From assembly GCA_004214015.1 (NCBI GenBank), contig SGZE01000001.1:13787-77786 (forward strand): DNA of 64,000 bases, written 5' to 3'. Position numbers and translations under genes: made by a program. Positions 3,163 through 45,626 of the stretch are shown here, piece after piece. The notes below the pieces were generated by a model. The model did not search any database, was not told the DNA's origin, and saw only the letters and a program-made list of their open reading frames with translations. The DNA comes from Flavobacteriales bacterium (GTDB taxonomy: Bacteria > Bacteroidota > Bacteroidia > Flavobacteriales > Flavobacteriaceae). The first letter of the stretch is position 1, and every line of letters begins with the position of its first letter.

Positions 3163-3892
3163 CACTAAAAAAACATTTGTTTATCAATTTGAAACCCACT
3201 TTCTTATTGAATCAGCAACTGATAATCATGAATTTTATTTTTCAGATAAGGATTATCTTGCAAAATCAAATATTTTTTTTTCAAAACTAGATAAAGATTA
3301 TGTTGAAGTTATTTATTTAAATTCTCAACCGTCTATTGTTCCCAGTTTATATTTTGAGGAAAACATGAAGTCCAAATACTTAGATACAAACACAGTTGTT
3401 TCTAAGTCTATTGTAACTGACACATCAAGTGATAGAAAAATAAAAGTGGTTTATTCAATTTCAGATGAATTAACTGAATTACTAGTTAAAAATAACCTGG
3501 AATACTCTAATAACAATTACTTTACTTATTTATATAATTTCTTAGTTAATAAAATTTCAAAATCAGATGGATTTTCATTTTATATAAACCTAAACTATAA
3601 ATCGTTTGATATAATTATTTTTAATAATAACGAGTTTATTTTTTTTAATTCTTTTAAAATCAATGATGAAAATGAGTTTTTGTACTATTTGTTCTTTGTA
3701 TTAAAGAACTATGAAAGTTCAAATAAAAGTGATAAAATTATATTTCTAGGAAAATTCGAAAAATTTAAAGATTATTATGAAATTGCTTCAAAGTACTCTA
3801 TTATTGATTTTGTTGACCTAACCAATAATTCCTCAATAATTAATGATTCACCATTTTTTTCAATTGTAAATGAGAATTATATCAGGAACTAA
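3143..3892 (+). CDS. Hypothetical protein, possibly the conserved Bacteroidota protein usually found upstream of rsmD (DUF3822-like; from memory, unverified)
   Basis: 249-aa ORF with ATG at 3143. Overlaps both neighbours, consistent with co-translation. Identified only by its position next to rsmD. Confidence 0.5.
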   Translation: MQKTKSNTKKTFVYQFETHFLIESATDNHEFYFSDKDYLAKSNIFFSKLDKDYVEVIYLNSQPSIVPSLYFEENMKSKYLDTNTVVSKSIVTDTSSDRKIKVVYSISDELTELLVKNNLEYSNNNYFTYLYNFLVNKISKSDGFSFYINLNYKSFDIIIFNNNEFIFFNSFKINDENEFLYYLFFVLKNYESSNKSDKIIFLGKFEKFKDYYEIASKYSIIDFVDLTNNSSIINDSPFFSIVNENYIRN

Positions 3893-4415
3893 AAAAAGTA
3901 TCTCTATTAGAGCTCCAAAAAACCTTCCAGTTAGACCAACTACAGATAAGGTAAAAGAATCCCTTTTTAATATAATTTCAAATAAATTTGATATTCCTGG
4001 ATTAACTGTTTTAGACTTGTTTTCAGGAACAGGAAATATTTCATATGAATTTGCATCTAGAGGTTGTTCTGAAATAGTATCTATTGATAACAATCATAAT
4101 TGTATTAGATTCATTAATAAAACTGCACTAAATTTTGATTTTAATATTCAAACAAAAAAGATAGACTATAAAGTTTACTTAAAGAATACAAAGAGAAAAT
4201 TTGATATAATTTTTGCAGATCCTCCATATAATTTTTCGAATAAACAATACATTGAAATGGTTAATCAGATTAAAGAATTTGATATTCTAAATAATGATGG
4301 AGAGATAATAATTGAACATAGTTCAAACATATCCTTATTTAATTCTAATGAAAAAATAGAAGAAAGGAAATATGGTTCTTCTGTATTAACTATTATAAAA
4401 AAAGCAAGCCTATAA
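3870..4415 (+). CDS. rsmD: 16S rRNA (guanine966-N2)-methyltransferase
   Basis: 181 aa. SAM-binding LDLFSGTGN and DPPY catalytic motif; length is typical of RsmD. Confidence 0.85.
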   Translation: MRIISGTKKSISIRAPKNLPVRPTTDKVKESLFNIISNKFDIPGLTVLDLFSGTGNISYEFASRGCSEIVSIDNNHNCIRFINKTALNFDFNIQTKKIDYKVYLKNTKRKFDIIFADPPYNFSNKQYIEMVNQIKEFDILNNDGEIIIEHSSNISLFNSNEKIEERKYGSSVLTIIKKASL

Positions 4416-4685
4416 GCCGGATTCTGTCGAGTCTTATCATTTATCTAGATGTAATATTACTATTACATTCATACCGCCTACCCTTCTACTTAAAACGAGC
4501 AATTTTAAAATGTAGATTTACTTGGCGTTTCACCATGCAGAGTTTACAAGATTCCACTACAGCATTACCTGTACATACTTTCTGTTGCACTATTCCTATC
4601 TATAAATAGATGACGGGTGTTACCCGCTGCATTGCTCTTTGGTGTCCGGACTTTCCTCTGAATAAACAGCGATAAGTCAGCTTGC
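4404..4685 (-). ncRNA. rnpB: RNase P RNA (bacterial type A-like, reduced size, about 282 nt)
   Basis: The minus strand reads GCAAGCUGACUUAUC...GAGGAAAGUCCGGAC (universal P4 5' strand) ...GGUAACACCCG...CAACAGAAAG...ACAGAAUCCGGCUUAUAGGCUUGC (P4 3' strand). GCAAGC/GCUUGC at the two ends can form P1. The region is locally G+C-rich in an AT-rich genome. Ends are inferred from P1 pairing only. Confidence 0.85.
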
Positions 4686-4689
4686 ATAA

Positions 4690-4773: not shown

Positions 4774-5835
4774 ATGAATAAATCCTCAATTTCATCAGCA
4801 TCTGAATACAGACCAAAGGATTTTAGTGATATGATTGGGCAAGATGCCATAGTCAAAACACTTTCAAATGCTATAAAAAATGATCAAATACCACAAGCTC
4901 TTCTCTTTTGTGGACCAAGAGGTGTGGGTAAAACATCATGTGCAAGGATTCTTGCTAAACAGATAAATGATCTAGAGGATAACTTTGAGTATAATATTTT
5001 TGAACTTGACGCAGCATCTAATAATTCTGTTGAAGATATCAGAAATATTACTGATCAAATTAGAATACCTCCTCAAATTGGAAAATATAAAGTTTACATA
5101 ATAGATGAAGTTCACATGCTTTCTAATGCTGCATTTAATGCATTCTTAAAATCATTAGAAGAACCTCCAAAACATGTTGTATTTATTTTAGCAACAACAG
5201 AAAAAAATAAAATTATTCCAACAATTTTATCTAGATGTCAAATTTATGATTTTAAGAAAGTTGACAGCTCATCAATCACCAAACTTTTAACTAGTATTTG
5301 TGTTGACAAAAAAATTAAATTTGATGAGAATTCATTGGCATTGATAGCTGAGAAATCTGATGGATCAATTAGAGATTCACTCTCAATGTTTGACAGGTTG
5401 GTAAGCTTTACAGATTCTAATTTAACAATCGCTGATGTAACATCTAATTTAAATGTTTTAGATTATGATACATATTTTGATTTATCAAGTTTTATTTTAA
5501 AAAAAGATATTCCAGGGATTTTAACAAAATACAATGATATTTTTAGTCGTGGTTTTGATGATATCAATTTTTTAAATGGTTTATCTAGACACTTAAGAGA
5601 GATGTTAGTCAGTAAATTAGGTACTTCAGAAAAAATATCTGACTTAAACAATGAATTAAAAGCAAAATATTTAGATCAATCTAATAATTTTTTAGATGCA
5701 GATCTTATTCTAATGATTCAAATAATTAATGAATGTTTAATAAATTATCAAAAAATAAATGATAAAAGAATTCATATAGAGCTTTGCTTAATGAGGATAG
5801 CTTCAATTGATAGCATTAAAAAAAAAAATCCTTAA
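4774..5835 (+). CDS. dnaX: DNA polymerase III clamp-loader subunit, zero-frame product (gamma-like, domains I-III, 353 aa)
   Basis: Walker A GPRGVGKTS, Walker B DEVHML, SRC motif SRCQ. ATG 4774 (MNKSS...) is preferred over the track start at 4702, which would run through the rnpB promoter region. Stops at TAA 5833-5835, two codons after an A11 run. Confidence 0.9.
   Translation: MNKSSISSASEYRPKDFSDMIGQDAIVKTLSNAIKNDQIPQALLFCGPRGVGKTSCARILAKQINDLEDNFEYNIFELDAASNNSVEDIRNITDQIRIPPQIGKYKVYIIDEVHMLSNAAFNAFLKSLEEPPKHVVFILATTEKNKIIPTILSRCQIYDFKKVDSSSITKLLTSICVDKKIKFDENSLALIAEKSDGSIRDSLSMFDRLVSFTDSNLTIADVTSNLNVLDYDTYFDLSSFILKKDIPGILTKYNDIFSRGFDDINFLNGLSRHLREMLVSKLGTSEKISDLNNELKAKYLDQSNNFLDADLILMIQIINECLINYQKINDKRIHIELCLMRIASIDSIKKKNP
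5818..5828 (+). other. A11 homopolymer: candidate -1 ribosomal frameshift / transcriptional slippage site in dnaX (or a homopolymer sequencing error)
   Basis: Eleven consecutive A. The only overlap between the zero-frame dnaX ORF and the downstream -1 frame ORF (5820-5832) coincides with this run. Contains the A AAA AAA slippery heptamer. Confidence 0.5.
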
Positions 5836-6386
5836 TTAAAACTTCAGACATAAAAAGTCTTATAAAGAAGGAAACAAAAGAACTTGATGATTATACTGAA
5901 TCTAATAATAAAAAATTATTTAATTCACCTCAACTTGAAGAAGTATCATCTTTATCTCTAGCTAGTTTAAGTTTTAAAAATTCCACTGAAGAAATACAAG
6001 AAGAAAAATTAGATAATTTACCTTCAGATAATTTCACAGAAAATGATTTTCAAATTGTTTGGAAAAAATTCTGTGATATAGAAAAAAATAAAGGAAATAA
6101 TAATATTCTTTCTCTCTTAAATATGAATAATCCGAGTATTAATGATAATATCATTACAATATCTACAATTAATAAAATGAATTTTAAAGAAGTTAAAGGT
6201 TACAAAAGTAGAATTCAAACATTCTTATCAAAGGAGTTAAATAATTACTCAATATCAGTAGATGTTAAATTATCTGATGAGATTACTAAAAGTTCTTACC
6301 TAGACAGTAAAGATAAACTTGATTTATTAATAAAAGACAATGAAAACATTGGTAAATTAATTACTGAATTAAAGTTAAGAATCTAA
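5820..6386 (+). CDS. dnaX: dnaX C-terminal (tau-specific) segment in the -1 frame, 188 codons
   Basis: The frame with codon starts divisible by 3 is closed by TAA 5817-5819, then open from 5820 to TAA 6384-6386. The track shows only 6123..6386, from the first ATG. The sequence ...NFTENDFQIVWKKFCDIEKNKGNNNILSLL...SRIQTFLSKELNNYSISVDVKL resembles the C-terminal part of full-length Bacteroidota DnaX as I recall it. Confidence 0.7.
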   Translation, partial: KKKSLIKTSDIKSLIKKETKELDDYTESNNKKLFNSPQLEEVSSLSLASLSFKNSTEEIQEEKLDNLPSDNFTENDFQIVWKKFCDIEKNKGNNNILSLLNMNNPSINDNIITISTINKMNFKEVKGYKSRIQTFLSKELNNYSISVDVKLSDEITKSSYLDSKDKLDLLIKDNENIGKLITELKLRI

Positions 6387-7271
6387 CTTACTAGCATTAT
6401 TTTCATAAAATATTTCATTTATCATCCCATCAACTAAGCCTGACTTTGGTACAAAAATTTTATTAGCTTTAACAAACTCCATAGTTGTTATAAATATTTT
6501 TAAAGCATAAATTATTACATCAGCTCTATCAGGGTTTAAATCAAACTTCATCATTCTCTCTTGGTAATTAAATTCCATTAAATTATTTGATAAATCTTTA
6601 ATTGAAAGATAAGAAATAGGTTTACCAGATTTTGAACCTGTCATTGATTGAATTTTATTTATGTTTCCGCCTGTTGCAAATAATTTAATCTTATCATCAT
6701 TATCTATGTTAGATTGTAACCATTTTTTTATATCCATAAACATTGAATCATCAACTAAATTATTAAGGAGTCTAACAGTACCAATTTTAAATGATCTAGA
6801 TATCTTTTCCTTACCTTTTCTTAAAATTGAAAATTCAGTGCTTCCTCCACCAACATCAACATATAAAAAGGTTTTATTAAACTCAATTTTCTCATGAGAA
6901 TTACCTTTAGAGATTATTTTAGCCTCCTTTATGCCTGTAATTAGTTCTATATTTAAATCCGTATTCTTTTTTACAATTGATATTACTTCTTTTGAATTTA
7001 TTGATTCTCTGAGAGCTGAAGTAGCGTAAATCTTATAATCTTTTACTCCATGCACTTTCATTATATACTTAAAAGATAAGATTGCATTTGTAAGTAGAAT
7101 GATTTTTTCATTTGATATTACACCATTTTTGAAAGAATCTTCACCAAGCCTTATGGGTAGTCTTAAATATGAGTTTTTTTGAAATACATATTCATCTCCT
7201 GAAGAAATAACATAGGAAATAAGCATTCTCACAGCATTAGAACCAATATCAATAGCAGCAATTTTTCTCAA
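6375..7271 (-). CDS. ppx: Exopolyphosphatase (Ppx/GppA family)
   Basis: 298 aa. IAAIDIGSNAVRMLIS and DVGGGSTE are actin-fold ATPase motifs typical of Ppx/GppA. 4-nt overlap with ppk1. Confidence 0.85.
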   Translation of the reverse strand: MRKIAAIDIGSNAVRMLISYVISSGDEYVFQKNSYLRLPIRLGEDSFKNGVISNEKIILLTNAILSFKYIMKVHGVKDYKIYATSALRESINSKEVISIVKKNTDLNIELITGIKEAKIISKGNSHEKIEFNKTFLYVDVGGGSTEFSILRKGKEKISRSFKIGTVRLLNNLVDDSMFMDIKKWLQSNIDNDDKIKLFATGGNINKIQSMTGSKSGKPISYLSIKDLSNNLMEFNYQERMMKFDLNPDRADVIIYALKIFITTMEFVKANKIFVPKSGLVDGMINEIFYENNASKLDS

Positions 7272-9313
7272 TTTAATATATTGTTTTTAAAATAAGTGTA
7301 GGTATCTAACTGAGATCTAATAGTTTTATTTGAATTATTAACAAATTCATTTTGAGAGGTATGGTTAATTAGCCTAGTTTTAACATTATCATTATCACTA
7401 ATGTAAAGAGTTTTTAAAATTTGTTGTTTAAGATTATCTTGATAAATTGGACAAGCAACTTCAACACGTTTTTCAATATTTCTTGTCATTAAATCAGCAG
7501 AAGATATATAGACTTTTGTTTTTCCTCCGTTTTCAAAAACATAAACTCTAGAATGTTCAAGATATTTATCTACAACACTTTTAACCTCAATATTTTCACT
7601 AAGACCAATTTTACCTGGTATTAAACAACATATTCCTCTAACTAATAATTTTATTTTTACACCTGAATTACTAGCCTCGTATAATTTGTCAACAAACTTA
7701 TAACTTGTAAAGCTATTTAATTTAAATATGATATTAGCTTTTAATCCTTTCTTAGCATTTGAAATTTCATTATCTATAAGTTCAAAAAGTTTTTTAGAAG
7801 TCTGATGAGGTGAAACAATTAGATGTTTATAGTCATGTATTTTATAATTAGCTTTAAGAAAATCAAAAACTTTATGAACTTCTTTTAATATTTTTTGATT
7901 TGATGTAAATAGTGTGAAATCAGAATATATTTTAGCTGTAGATTCATTAAAATTTCCTGTACTAACAAACCCATAGAATCTTTTTTTATAACCCTTAAAC
8001 CTTTCAATTAAACATATCTTTGAATGAACTTTTAAACCTTTAACTCCAAAAATTAAATCTACGCCTGCTGCTTTTAATTGTTGGGATACCTTAATATTGT
8101 TTTCTTCATCAAATCTAGCTTGAAGTTCAATTTGAACTAATACTTTTTTACCATTTTTTGCAGCATTAATAAGAGAGCTTATAACATTTGATTTTTTTGA
8201 TAATCTGTATAAAGTTATTTTAATTGACTTAACACTTGGATCTATTGCAGACTGCCTAAGGATAGACACCAAATAAGAAAACGAATGATAAGGGGTATAC
8301 ATTAAAAAATCCTTTTCAGATATTTGATCTAAAAGATTAGATTCAATTTTTAAACTATTTATATCTAATGCTTTTTCTTTTGGATATAGCAAATCAGATC
8401 TTCCTAAATCTGGAAAATTCATGTAATCACTTCTATGGTGATATTTACCTCCAGGTATCAAACTATCATAAGAAGAAATTTTAATTTTTTTAATTAAATA
8501 GCTTAAAGTTGAACCAGAGATATTTTTATCATAAACTAACCTAACTGGGTTACTAATTTTTCTCTTATTAACGTATTCTTGAATTTTTTTAATATAACTC
8601 TTAGATAGATCAATATCATCTATGTCAAACTCTGCATCTCTAGTAATTTTAAGCATATTAGCTTCAATATCAGAGTAGTTAAAAAAACTAAAGATAATAT
8701 CTAAATGATATCTAATTATATCATCAATAAGCATAATATACTGTTTATCGCCTTTTTTAGGAAGAACAACGAACCTACTTATATCTCTGGGTATTTCTAC
8801 CAATGCATAGATATTATTATCATCTATAAGCTTAATGTTAGTTATTAGAAATGCCTTATTGTCTTTGAAATCATGAAGCTTGTTGTTTGACAATATTACA
8901 GTAACTAAAGAAGGGCTAATTTTTCTAATAAAATAATCCTTTAAAAATTCTTTTTGAGACTCTAACACCTCATTTTCATTAATAAAAACTATATTTTCAT
9001 TTTTTAATGATTTTTCAATTGACTCAAGAATTAATGAACTTTTTGACTGAAGATTTATAACCTTAGAAGTAATTTGATCTAAAAGATTTTTAGCAGCTAT
9101 ATGATCTTTACTGTTTTTTGAAGTTGGTTTTGTGTCAGCAATTCTTTTTACAGTTGCATATCTAACTTGAAAAAATTCATCTAAATTATTTGAAAAAATT
9201 CCTATGAACCTTAATCTTTCTAGGATTGGGACCTCTTTATTAGAAGCTTCCTGAAGAACTCTTGCATTAAAATCTAGCCAACTTAGCTCTCTATTTATGT
9301 ATCTAGGTTCCAC
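7268..9313 (-). CDS. ppk1: Polyphosphate kinase 1
   Basis: 681 aa. N-terminus YINRELSWLDFNARVLQEA; two PLD-like C-terminal domains with HSK motifs (VHSKICLIE). Confidence 0.95.
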   Translation of the reverse strand: MEPRYINRELSWLDFNARVLQEASNKEVPILERLRFIGIFSNNLDEFFQVRYATVKRIADTKPTSKNSKDHIAAKNLLDQITSKVINLQSKSSLILESIEKSLKNENIVFINENEVLESQKEFLKDYFIRKISPSLVTVILSNNKLHDFKDNKAFLITNIKLIDDNNIYALVEIPRDISRFVVLPKKGDKQYIMLIDDIIRYHLDIIFSFFNYSDIEANMLKITRDAEFDIDDIDLSKSYIKKIQEYVNKRKISNPVRLVYDKNISGSTLSYLIKKIKISSYDSLIPGGKYHHRSDYMNFPDLGRSDLLYPKEKALDINSLKIESNLLDQISEKDFLMYTPYHSFSYLVSILRQSAIDPSVKSIKITLYRLSKKSNVISSLINAAKNGKKVLVQIELQARFDEENNIKVSQQLKAAGVDLIFGVKGLKVHSKICLIERFKGYKKRFYGFVSTGNFNESTAKIYSDFTLFTSNQKILKEVHKVFDFLKANYKIHDYKHLIVSPHQTSKKLFELIDNEISNAKKGLKANIIFKLNSFTSYKFVDKLYEASNSGVKIKLLVRGICCLIPGKIGLSENIEVKSVVDKYLEHSRVYVFENGGKTKVYISSADLMTRNIEKRVEVACPIYQDNLKQQILKTLYISDNDNVKTRLINHTSQNEFVNNSNKTIRSQLDTYTYFKNNILN

Positions 9314-45080: not shown

Positions 45081-45626
45081 TTGAAAGAAGGTACTTTACT
45101 TAAACTTTTAAAGAATTCTGATACTAAGAATGAAGGCTTTAGACTTCTTGTAGATTTATATCATGAAAAAACTTATTGGATGATAAGAAAAATGATACTA
45201 TCGCATGATTCAACAAATGATGTTCTTCAAGAAACATATGTTAGAATATTTAAAGGTATAGATAACTTTAAAGAGAAGAGTAAACTTTCTACTTGGATTT
45301 ATAGAATTGCATATAATGAGTCTATTAGGTTTTTAGCTAGTGAATCTAAAATTAAAAAAGTTGAACTAGATTCTAATGATGACAACTATTCAAGAAAATT
45401 ATATGCAGACGGATATTTTGATGCAGAAAATTTATCTCTTAAATTTCATCAAATATTATCCGAATTAACTTTAAGACAAAGGAATGTCTTTAACATGAAA
45501 TATTTTGATGAACTTAAGTTTAACGAAATATCTAAAATTACTGGGATAAATATTAACACAATTAAGTCAACATACTATTTAGTTGAAAAAAAAATTAAAA
45601 AAGAAATAAATGAATCAGCATTATAA
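45081..45626 (+). CDS. ECF-type RNA polymerase sigma-70 factor
   Basis: 181 aa (TTG start). Region 2 (VLQETYVRIF...STWIYRIAYNE) and region 4 (LRQRNVFNMKYFDELKFNEISKITG). Confidence 0.85.
   Translation: MKEGTLLKLLKNSDTKNEGFRLLVDLYHEKTYWMIRKMILSHDSTNDVLQETYVRIFKGIDNFKEKSKLSTWIYRIAYNESIRFLASESKIKKVELDSNDDNYSRKLYADGYFDAENLSLKFHQILSELTLRQRNVFNMKYFDELKFNEISKITGININTIKSTYYLVEKKIKKEINESAL

Follow-up and report, generated by a model that had tools for sequence, protein, structure and literature searches.

The dnaX gene of a marine Flavobacteriales bacterium is split at an A11 run, with tau probably made by recoding

Tau, the longer product of dnaX, physically links the clamp loader to the polymerase and is essential in the bacteria studied. 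Here we describe the dnaX gene in a 64,000-nucleotide stretch of DNA from a Flavobacteriales bacterium (assembly GCA_004214015.1, contig SGZE01000001.1, positions 13,787 to 77,786; hereafter the window), which is split at a run of eleven A's (A11) into two open reading frames, ORF1 and ORF2. We conclude that tau is very probably made by recoding at this run. The closest described genes are the two-ORF dnaX genes that Antonov et al. reported in 2013 from the GeneTack dnaX cluster (Nucleic Acids Research 41:6514, PMC3711429) in Flavobacterium, Cytophaga, Capnocytophaga and Chlorobi. Their Supplementary Figure S3 includes Flavobacterium johnsoniae, F. psychrophilum, Cytophaga hutchinsonii, Capnocytophaga ochracea, several Chlorobi and Coraliomargarita; nine of their dnaX genes carry A10, and programmed transcriptional realignment was the mechanism predicted (PMC3711429). 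As in those genes, ORF1 of the window gene (clamp-loader domains I-III) ends just past the poly-A, the C-terminal part is encoded in the -1 frame, and tau needs recoding. The described genes have A10 followed by G whereas the window has A11 followed by T, although its relatives of the L014 type do have A10+G. Unlike the known members, the window host is an uncultured marine member of the Flavobacteriales with 29% GC, and split and fused genes have flipped among its close relatives. In all its sequence-level features the window dnaX corresponds to the two-ORF type, and on that basis we regard it as a new member. An earlier note on this DNA had considered its 'inverted logic', with tau as the recoded product, to be notable. 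The reversed register stood but its novelty did not: the two-ORF principle has been published since 2013, and the window extends rather than changes what is known. A literature search found no experimental test of recoding for any Bacteroidota dnaX.

Two better-studied dnaX genes provide further points of comparison. The dnaX of Thermus thermophilus contains an A9 run and uses transcriptional slippage (Larsen et al. 2000, as related in passages of PMC1088944 and PMC5009743). The window gene shares with it an A run at the gamma/tau boundary and nearby stops in both alternative frames. One Thermus gene yields two subunits from heterogeneous mRNAs, which for the window gene is a proposal only. 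In Thermus the templated zero frame encodes tau, and slipped mRNAs yield gamma; the window register is reversed, with tau in the -1 frame, whereas fused relatives of the window (L008-L013, L017, L018, L020 and L023-L025) share the Thermus register. With Escherichia coli dnaX, the window gene has in common the gene and domain boundary, Lys codons at the shift site and the -1 frame relation. The E. coli site is A_AAA_AAG with an upstream Shine-Dalgarno (SD)-like element and a downstream stem-loop, stimulators that were not found in the window, and its shifted product is gamma whereas that of the window would be tau. Furthermore, the window heptamer is embedded in a run of at least 10 A's, and E. 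coli dnaX has no such run. Slippage at poly(A) tracts also rescues genes in Buchnera and Blochmannia. In Shigella mxiE and Citrobacter tssM, as in the window gene, an A/T run lies between overlapping ORFs, and polymerase slippage restores the long product (PMC1088944; PMC4256274). The Shigella, Citrobacter and endosymbiont cases are lineage-specific or concern degenerating genes, whereas the window run is ancient and conserved and lies in an essential replication gene.

Structure of the split gene and identity of its two frames

The earlier note had placed the split at an A11 run on the gamma/tau boundary, and every coordinate was confirmed: the ATG at 4774, the run at 5818-5828, ORF2 at 5820-6386 and the ORF1 stop at 5833-5835. 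The features of the gene, in window positions, are as follows.

4774..5835, + strand: dnaX ORF1; 353 codons from ATG 4774, ending ...DSIKKKNP, stop TAA 5833-5835; gamma-like product under standard decoding
5818..5828, + strand: A11 run, the putative slippage site; in frame 0 it reads Lys-Lys-Lys plus the AA of AAT, and it holds the heptamer A_AAA_AAA
5829..5842, + strand: conserved post-run motif TCCTTAATTAAAAC; encodes SLIKT in the tau frame
5820..6386, + strand: dnaX ORF2, the tau-specific extension; -1 frame, 188 codons, comprising a variable linker, the VSSLSLASL motif and a C-terminal domain
6021..6383, + strand: predicted tau C-terminal globular domain; ORF2 residues ~68-188; precomputed Pfam label DUF8439 (PF28557)

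In the zero frame the slippery site is phased ATT AAA AAA AAA AAT, which contains A_AAA_AAA, whereas the E. coli heptamer is A_AAA_AAG. A TAA at 5817-5819 closes the -1 frame, which from 5820 stays open as far as TAA 6384-6386 and begins with KKKSLIKTSDIK...; the overlap of the two ORFs (5820-5832) is confined to the run region. The +1 frame meets an immediate stop after the run. The TCCTTAATTAAAAC motif provides the stops for both non-tau frames (frame 0, TAA 5833-5835; +1 frame, TAA 5837-5839).

ORF1 matched the Pfam families DNA_pol3_delta2, DNAX_ATPase_lid and DNA_pol3_gamma3 and scored 368.6 bits against NCBIfam TIGR02397 dnaX_nterm (cut-off 250), and these matches identify it as DnaX clamp-loader domains I-III. 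The proposal that the -1 frame encodes the C-terminal portion of DnaX was borne out by the Bacteroidota DnaX model PRK14971 (NCBIfam), which ORF2 matched at positions 474-612 of 614 (E 5e-14); the C-termini of unsplit relatives also aligned with ORF2 along its full length. A search of ORF2 against the local Pfam copy found no family, and the DUF8439 label comes from precomputed annotations only.

AlphaFold2, given a diverse set of aligned C-terminal homologues, produced a model of moderate confidence over ORF2 residues ~68-188 (predicted local distance difference test, pLDDT, ~80-87) that suggests an alpha/beta fold of the type-II KH kind. When the full-length fused protein was modelled from a shallow alignment, its C-terminal third had a pLDDT of 30-60 and was unusable. 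A Foldseek search of the C-terminal domain model against the PDB returned no significant match (best E 0.05). The top matches, none of them significant, were DnaA domain I (4tps, 2e0g; template modelling score 0.55-0.68 normalised to target) and DciA (8a3v, 7ykm), with the E. coli tau C-terminus (5fku_E) as a weak match at rank 14. Profile comparison of the C-terminus with PDB sequences yielded nothing beyond a chance match, S100-A9 (E 0.1). The type-II KH fold is common to DnaA domain I, the DciA N-terminal domain and DnaX domain V (PMC8216460), and the model suggests compatibility of the window domain with tau domain V.

Recurrence of the split and selection on ORF2

We searched protein collections with the conceptually fused product and listed the best 120 matches. 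Among the matches listed at 86-97% identity, nearly all were 353 residues long and only three were fused proteins of 537 residues. One 353-residue protein occurred on 182 contigs, drawn from NCBI, JGI, ENA, Logan and Tara. With each GTDB species represented by a single genome, a further scan yielded 58 loci. The gene was split in 15 other species representatives (14 with the C-terminus in the -1 frame, L001 with it in the +1 frame), and 12 close relatives had a single-ORF dnaX. Relatives of the window were labelled MED-G11 or Candidatus Marisimplicoccus. The junction pattern was also scanned against metagenome contigs, of which 37 matched and 30 were split in the -1 register:

A11+TC: 17 contigs, split
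A10+GTC: 7 contigs, split
A10+CTC: 6 contigs, split
A11+CTC: 5 contigs, fused
A12+CTC: 2 contigs, tau in the +1 frame

Among the split metagenome contigs, two have AACY accessions and are apparently Sanger reads of the Global Ocean Sampling (GOS) project.

The same pattern was found in cultured bacteria. The Prolixibacteraceae Draconibacterium sp. IB214405 and Maribellus sp. CM-23 have a split gene with A10 followed by TAG and the C-terminus in the -1 frame, and an independent Logan assembly one base off CM-23 near the run is likewise split. In Maribellus mangrovi the gene is fused, with A12. The run sites in Prolixibacteraceae loci are:

L045: 3580-3592
L100 and L099: ~2400-2414
L044: 3579-3590

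These observations bear on the trivial alternative raised in the earlier note, namely a homopolymer-length error hiding a true A12 and a single-ORF dnaX. What favours such an error are three contigs of split lineages (L059, L060 and L061) with A12 and a fused 537-residue ORF, L059 being 99% identical to the window. However, these contigs are short (2.4-4.1 kb) and of low coverage, each of the proteins is on a single contig, and the one stated coverage is 2.7x; they are either rare alleles or errors themselves. Against them stand the 17 independent A11+TC contigs and 13 with A10+C/G, all sharing one split register, the two apparently Sanger-read AACY contigs among the split ones, the 353-residue protein on its 182 contigs from several sources, and the cultured Maribellus and Draconibacterium genomes. 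In the L002 (A10+C) and L014 (A10+G) types, position 11 is a non-A base and the frame structure is unchanged; therefore a homopolymer miscount cannot explain the split. The fused L023 regains its frame through one additional base located 5' of the run. The window itself contains no other gene broken at a homopolymer run, and its long ORFs occupy 96.7% of it. This recurrence in independent assemblies and species effectively refutes the error.

Three variants place tau in the +1 frame: L001 at 3545-3554 (A10+TCC), L071 at 648-683 (A12+CTCC) and L082 at 3361-3396 (A12+CTCT). They are either real alleles that only slippage could rescue or assembly errors. The L071 sample, Ga0075511, may be a metatranscriptome.

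A further alternative is fission or decay of the gene, whereby DnaX would be gamma-only and ORF2 a decaying remnant or a separate protein with its own start. Database annotation looks like this, since NCBI and gene callers label the pieces apart, ORF1 as 'DNA polymerase III subunit gamma/tau' (353 residues) and ORF2-derived ORFs as 'hypothetical protein'. The evolution of ORF2 speaks against it. Ratios of nonsynonymous to synonymous substitution (dN/dS) were estimated by the Nei-Gojobori method on codon alignments for pairs with dS <1:

ORF1: 0.078 in split pairs (n=17), 0.086 in fused pairs (n=36)
ORF2: 0.236 in split pairs (n=17), 0.231 in fused pairs (n=36)
ORF2, variable linker: 0.50 in split clades, 0.53 in the fused clade
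ORF2, conserved C-terminal part: 0.16 in split clades, 0.175 in the fused clade

ORF2 dN/dS thus equals that of the fused orthologues, and selection on ORF2 persists in split lineages that have reached synonymous saturation (dS >1). The frame is open starting exactly at the run in nearly all split species and extends without a stop over 182-186 codons in every split species of the window's clade; a random frame at 29% GC would meet a stop about every 12 codons, as estimated from base composition. The earliest start-like codon conserved in split species is an ATG at codon ~99, and the conserved VSSLSLASL and FTENDF..W.KF segments precede it. The SLIKT residues right after the run are identical in split and fused genes. 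Given the undiminished selection, the late conserved start codon and the shared SLIKT, it is very unlikely that ORF2 is decaying or is initiated independently, and the essentiality of tau in studied bacteria weighs in the same direction; we give a gamma-only DnaX very little credence. Taken together, the sequence comparisons indicate that the dnaX split is neither a sequencing error nor a pseudogene. They also lend support to the 353-residue gamma-like protein and the recoded 537-residue tau of the earlier note: the split is recurrent, ORF2 is under purifying selection, and the predicted fused product, with its junction ...SIKKKKSLIKT..., is identical to the rare A12 allele P0001/L059.

Conservation of the A run and changes of register

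When the orthologous loci were aligned, all 53 related loci tabulated had a run of A10-A12 where domain III ends, at an identical codon boundary; among them were two Prolixibacteraceae isolates and Flavobacteriales whose N-terminal parts are only ~50% identical. One frame of each locus runs on for 182-216 codons (loci reaching a stop) and the other two stop within 1-6 codons. The codon position at which the run starts is 1, 2 or 3 depending on the lineage, and the run is never shorter than 10. None of the loci tabulated has an AAG codon inside the run, whereas across the dnaX genes of 27 close loci AAG accounts for 22.6% of Lys codons outside the run. The run and the next ~15 nt are the most conserved columns of the alignment. 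The earlier note had looked to uninterrupted relatives free of an A run as evidence against recoding; uninterrupted relatives do exist, but they retain the run. Judged from these alignments, the cassette is far older than the split.

A run of 11 could be produced by composition alone, as 1000 codon-order shuffles of the window ORFs gave an expectation of 3.3 runs of 11 or more. Long coding runs of A or T are nevertheless depleted in the window. Six runs of at least 9 were observed against 18.5 expected (0/1000 shuffles as low) and one of at least 10 against 7.7 expected (5/1000 shuffles as low), the dnaX A11 being the window's only coding run of at least 10.

In a neighbour-joining tree of concatenated protein, the window clade (WIN, L001-L007) was entirely split. 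A second clade contained two split groups (L014 and relatives; L021/L022), and the fused L023 was nested beside L021/L022 with a bootstrap value of 100. The fused L024 was sister to this second clade, and the L008 clade, L020 and the outgroups were fused. Within the fused L008 clade, L101-L103 carry a split (-1) allele that is indexed in 86 blocks of the collection (L101 gene, 1003-2603). L101 shows 95.5% nucleotide identity to the fused L013 across the gene, and L101-L103 represent a recent register flip inside an otherwise fused clade. These relationships require at least four changes of the tau register among close relatives. A single nucleotide can reverse which dnaX product needs the shift (Atkins et al. 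2016, PMC5009743), and the repeated flips fit a site that yields both products in either register.

Such flips, together with the A10, A11 and A12 variants within lineages, might also be read as phase variation at the DNA level, in which replication slippage interconverts A11 (gamma only) and A12 and tau is supplied by an A12 subpopulation. However, a cell lacking tau would not be expected to replicate, which is incompatible with A11 as the consensus of almost every split-lineage assembly, and the split lineages persist to dS >1 with ORF2 still selected. We consider phase variation highly improbable.

The surroundings of the gene in the window (G+C 28.8%) were also inspected. A class A RNase P RNA (Rfam RF00010, 191 bits, E 2.6e-60) lies directly upstream of dnaX on the opposite strand, at 4397-4688 (-). 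It accounts for the G+C-richer patch before dnaX, and its position excludes initiation of dnaX at an upstream TTG (4702). A convergent Ppx/GppA phosphatase gene at 6375-7271 (-) shares 12 nt (6375-6386) of its 3' end with the 3' end of ORF2, and a polyphosphate kinase gene at 7268-9313 (-) comes next; these neighbours are also kept in related loci. The sole other run longer than 9 nt is an A12 at 2462-2473, located between two divergent genes 34 nt 5' of an ATG at 2507; as it is outside coding sequence, it was rejected as a second recoding site. An A9 run at 45586-45594 was considered as a second split, but it belongs to two ordinary adjacent genes with an ATG at 45610. No tRNA genes were found within the 64-kb window, hence none for tRNA-Lys, whose repertoire has a bearing on shiftiness.

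Transcriptional slippage and ribosomal frameshifting as possible routes to tau

We favour transcriptional slippage as the main route to tau, with a probability of about 0.6. Ribosomes translating unaltered mRNA would stop two codons past the run and yield the 353-residue gamma-like subunit. RNA polymerase would slip on the 11 template T's and produce some transcripts with A12 (also A9, A15 and so on). In A12 transcripts, ORF1 and ORF2 would form one frame, from which ordinary translation would give the 537-residue tau with the junction ...DSIKKKKSLIKT..., and the remaining length class would lead into the +1 frame, with its immediate stop, and to a second gamma-sized product. One gene would thus supply both clamp-loader subunits, the genomic register making tau the slippage product.

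The other route is programmed -1 ribosomal frameshifting, in which a slip on A_AAA_AAA of A11 mRNA would lead to the same ...IKKKKSLIKT... tau. One added A in the mRNA and a -1 ribosome slip on the heptamer result in an identical tau sequence. The heptamer is perfectly phased in the zero frame, and in E. coli dnaX the -1 shift likewise takes place on Lys codons at this domain boundary; the same review (PMC5009743) mentions a two-ORF dnaX from Chlorobium whose stimulators resemble those of E. coli. However, A_AAA_AAA was reported to be far less shift-prone than A_AAA_AAG in E. coli (PMC5009743), and stimulators were not evident in the window gene. RNAalifold predicted 0 pairs of conserved structure downstream of the run in 13 split loci, where the minimum free energy was -4.8 kcal/mol (z +0.5), and nothing meaningful was found in the search for conserved structure upstream. 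A permissive Rfam scan of 5600-6100 found no frameshift-element family, only four sub-threshold unrelated matches. The window has a lone GAGG 21 nt ahead of the run, whereas an SD-like stimulator would lie about 10 nt before the site, and relatives do not conserve it; Bacteroidetes mRNAs mostly lack SD sequences (PMC6847099).

Transcriptional slippage is favoured because at least 10 A's are kept where a heptamer would suffice, and because the run persists whatever its codon phase and also where the gene is unsplit, a setting in which gamma production is the only role one could plausibly assign to it. It is further favoured because stops cap both off-frames, because no RNA-structure stimulator, Rfam match or conserved SD-like element was found, and because coding A/T runs are depleted, as expected if the polymerase slips (the argument of PMC1088944).

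Several points weigh against this preference. That the slip occurs during transcription rather than on the ribosome is, like any tau:gamma ratio, inferred and not observed. The length of the run is suggestive rather than decisive, in that A runs of at least 10 hold A_AAA_AAA in every phase. Ribosomes can slide on poly(A) without stimulators. All split GTDB representative loci but L001 are of the -1 type, as pure -1 ribosomal frameshifting predicts, whereas slippage predicts a -1 bias only if one added A is the commonest slip. The +1-type variants L001, L071 and L082 could be assembly errors. In addition, certain AT-rich bacteria appear to suppress slippage (PMC1088944). On balance, we regard ribosomal frameshifting as rather unlikely to be the main route, at about one chance in four and well below slippage; polymerase and ribosomal slips may both contribute.

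A broader reading, for which we see about even odds, is that the A10-12 cassette is an ancient slippage device used throughout the Bacteroidota (and, per the literature, in Chlorobi), providing gamma in unsplit and tau in split genes, and that one-base indels have flipped its register repeatedly, at least four times within one marine clade of genus to family level. If so, slippage would be efficient enough for viability in either register, and the marine lineages would form a natural series on the tau:gamma ratio tolerated by the replisome.

What is new here relative to the published two-ORF genes is that selection on ORF2 is undiminished, that unsplit relatives keep the cassette and that close relatives show several flips of the register. 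Annotation pipelines miss two-ORF dnaX genes, and the halves can be misread as a pseudogene or an assembly error. The register flips support the idea that one nucleotide swaps the shift-dependent product, and they provide natural variants with which the setting of the tau:gamma ratio can be studied. In these abundant marine bacteria, an essential replisome subunit is apparently made by non-standard decoding only.

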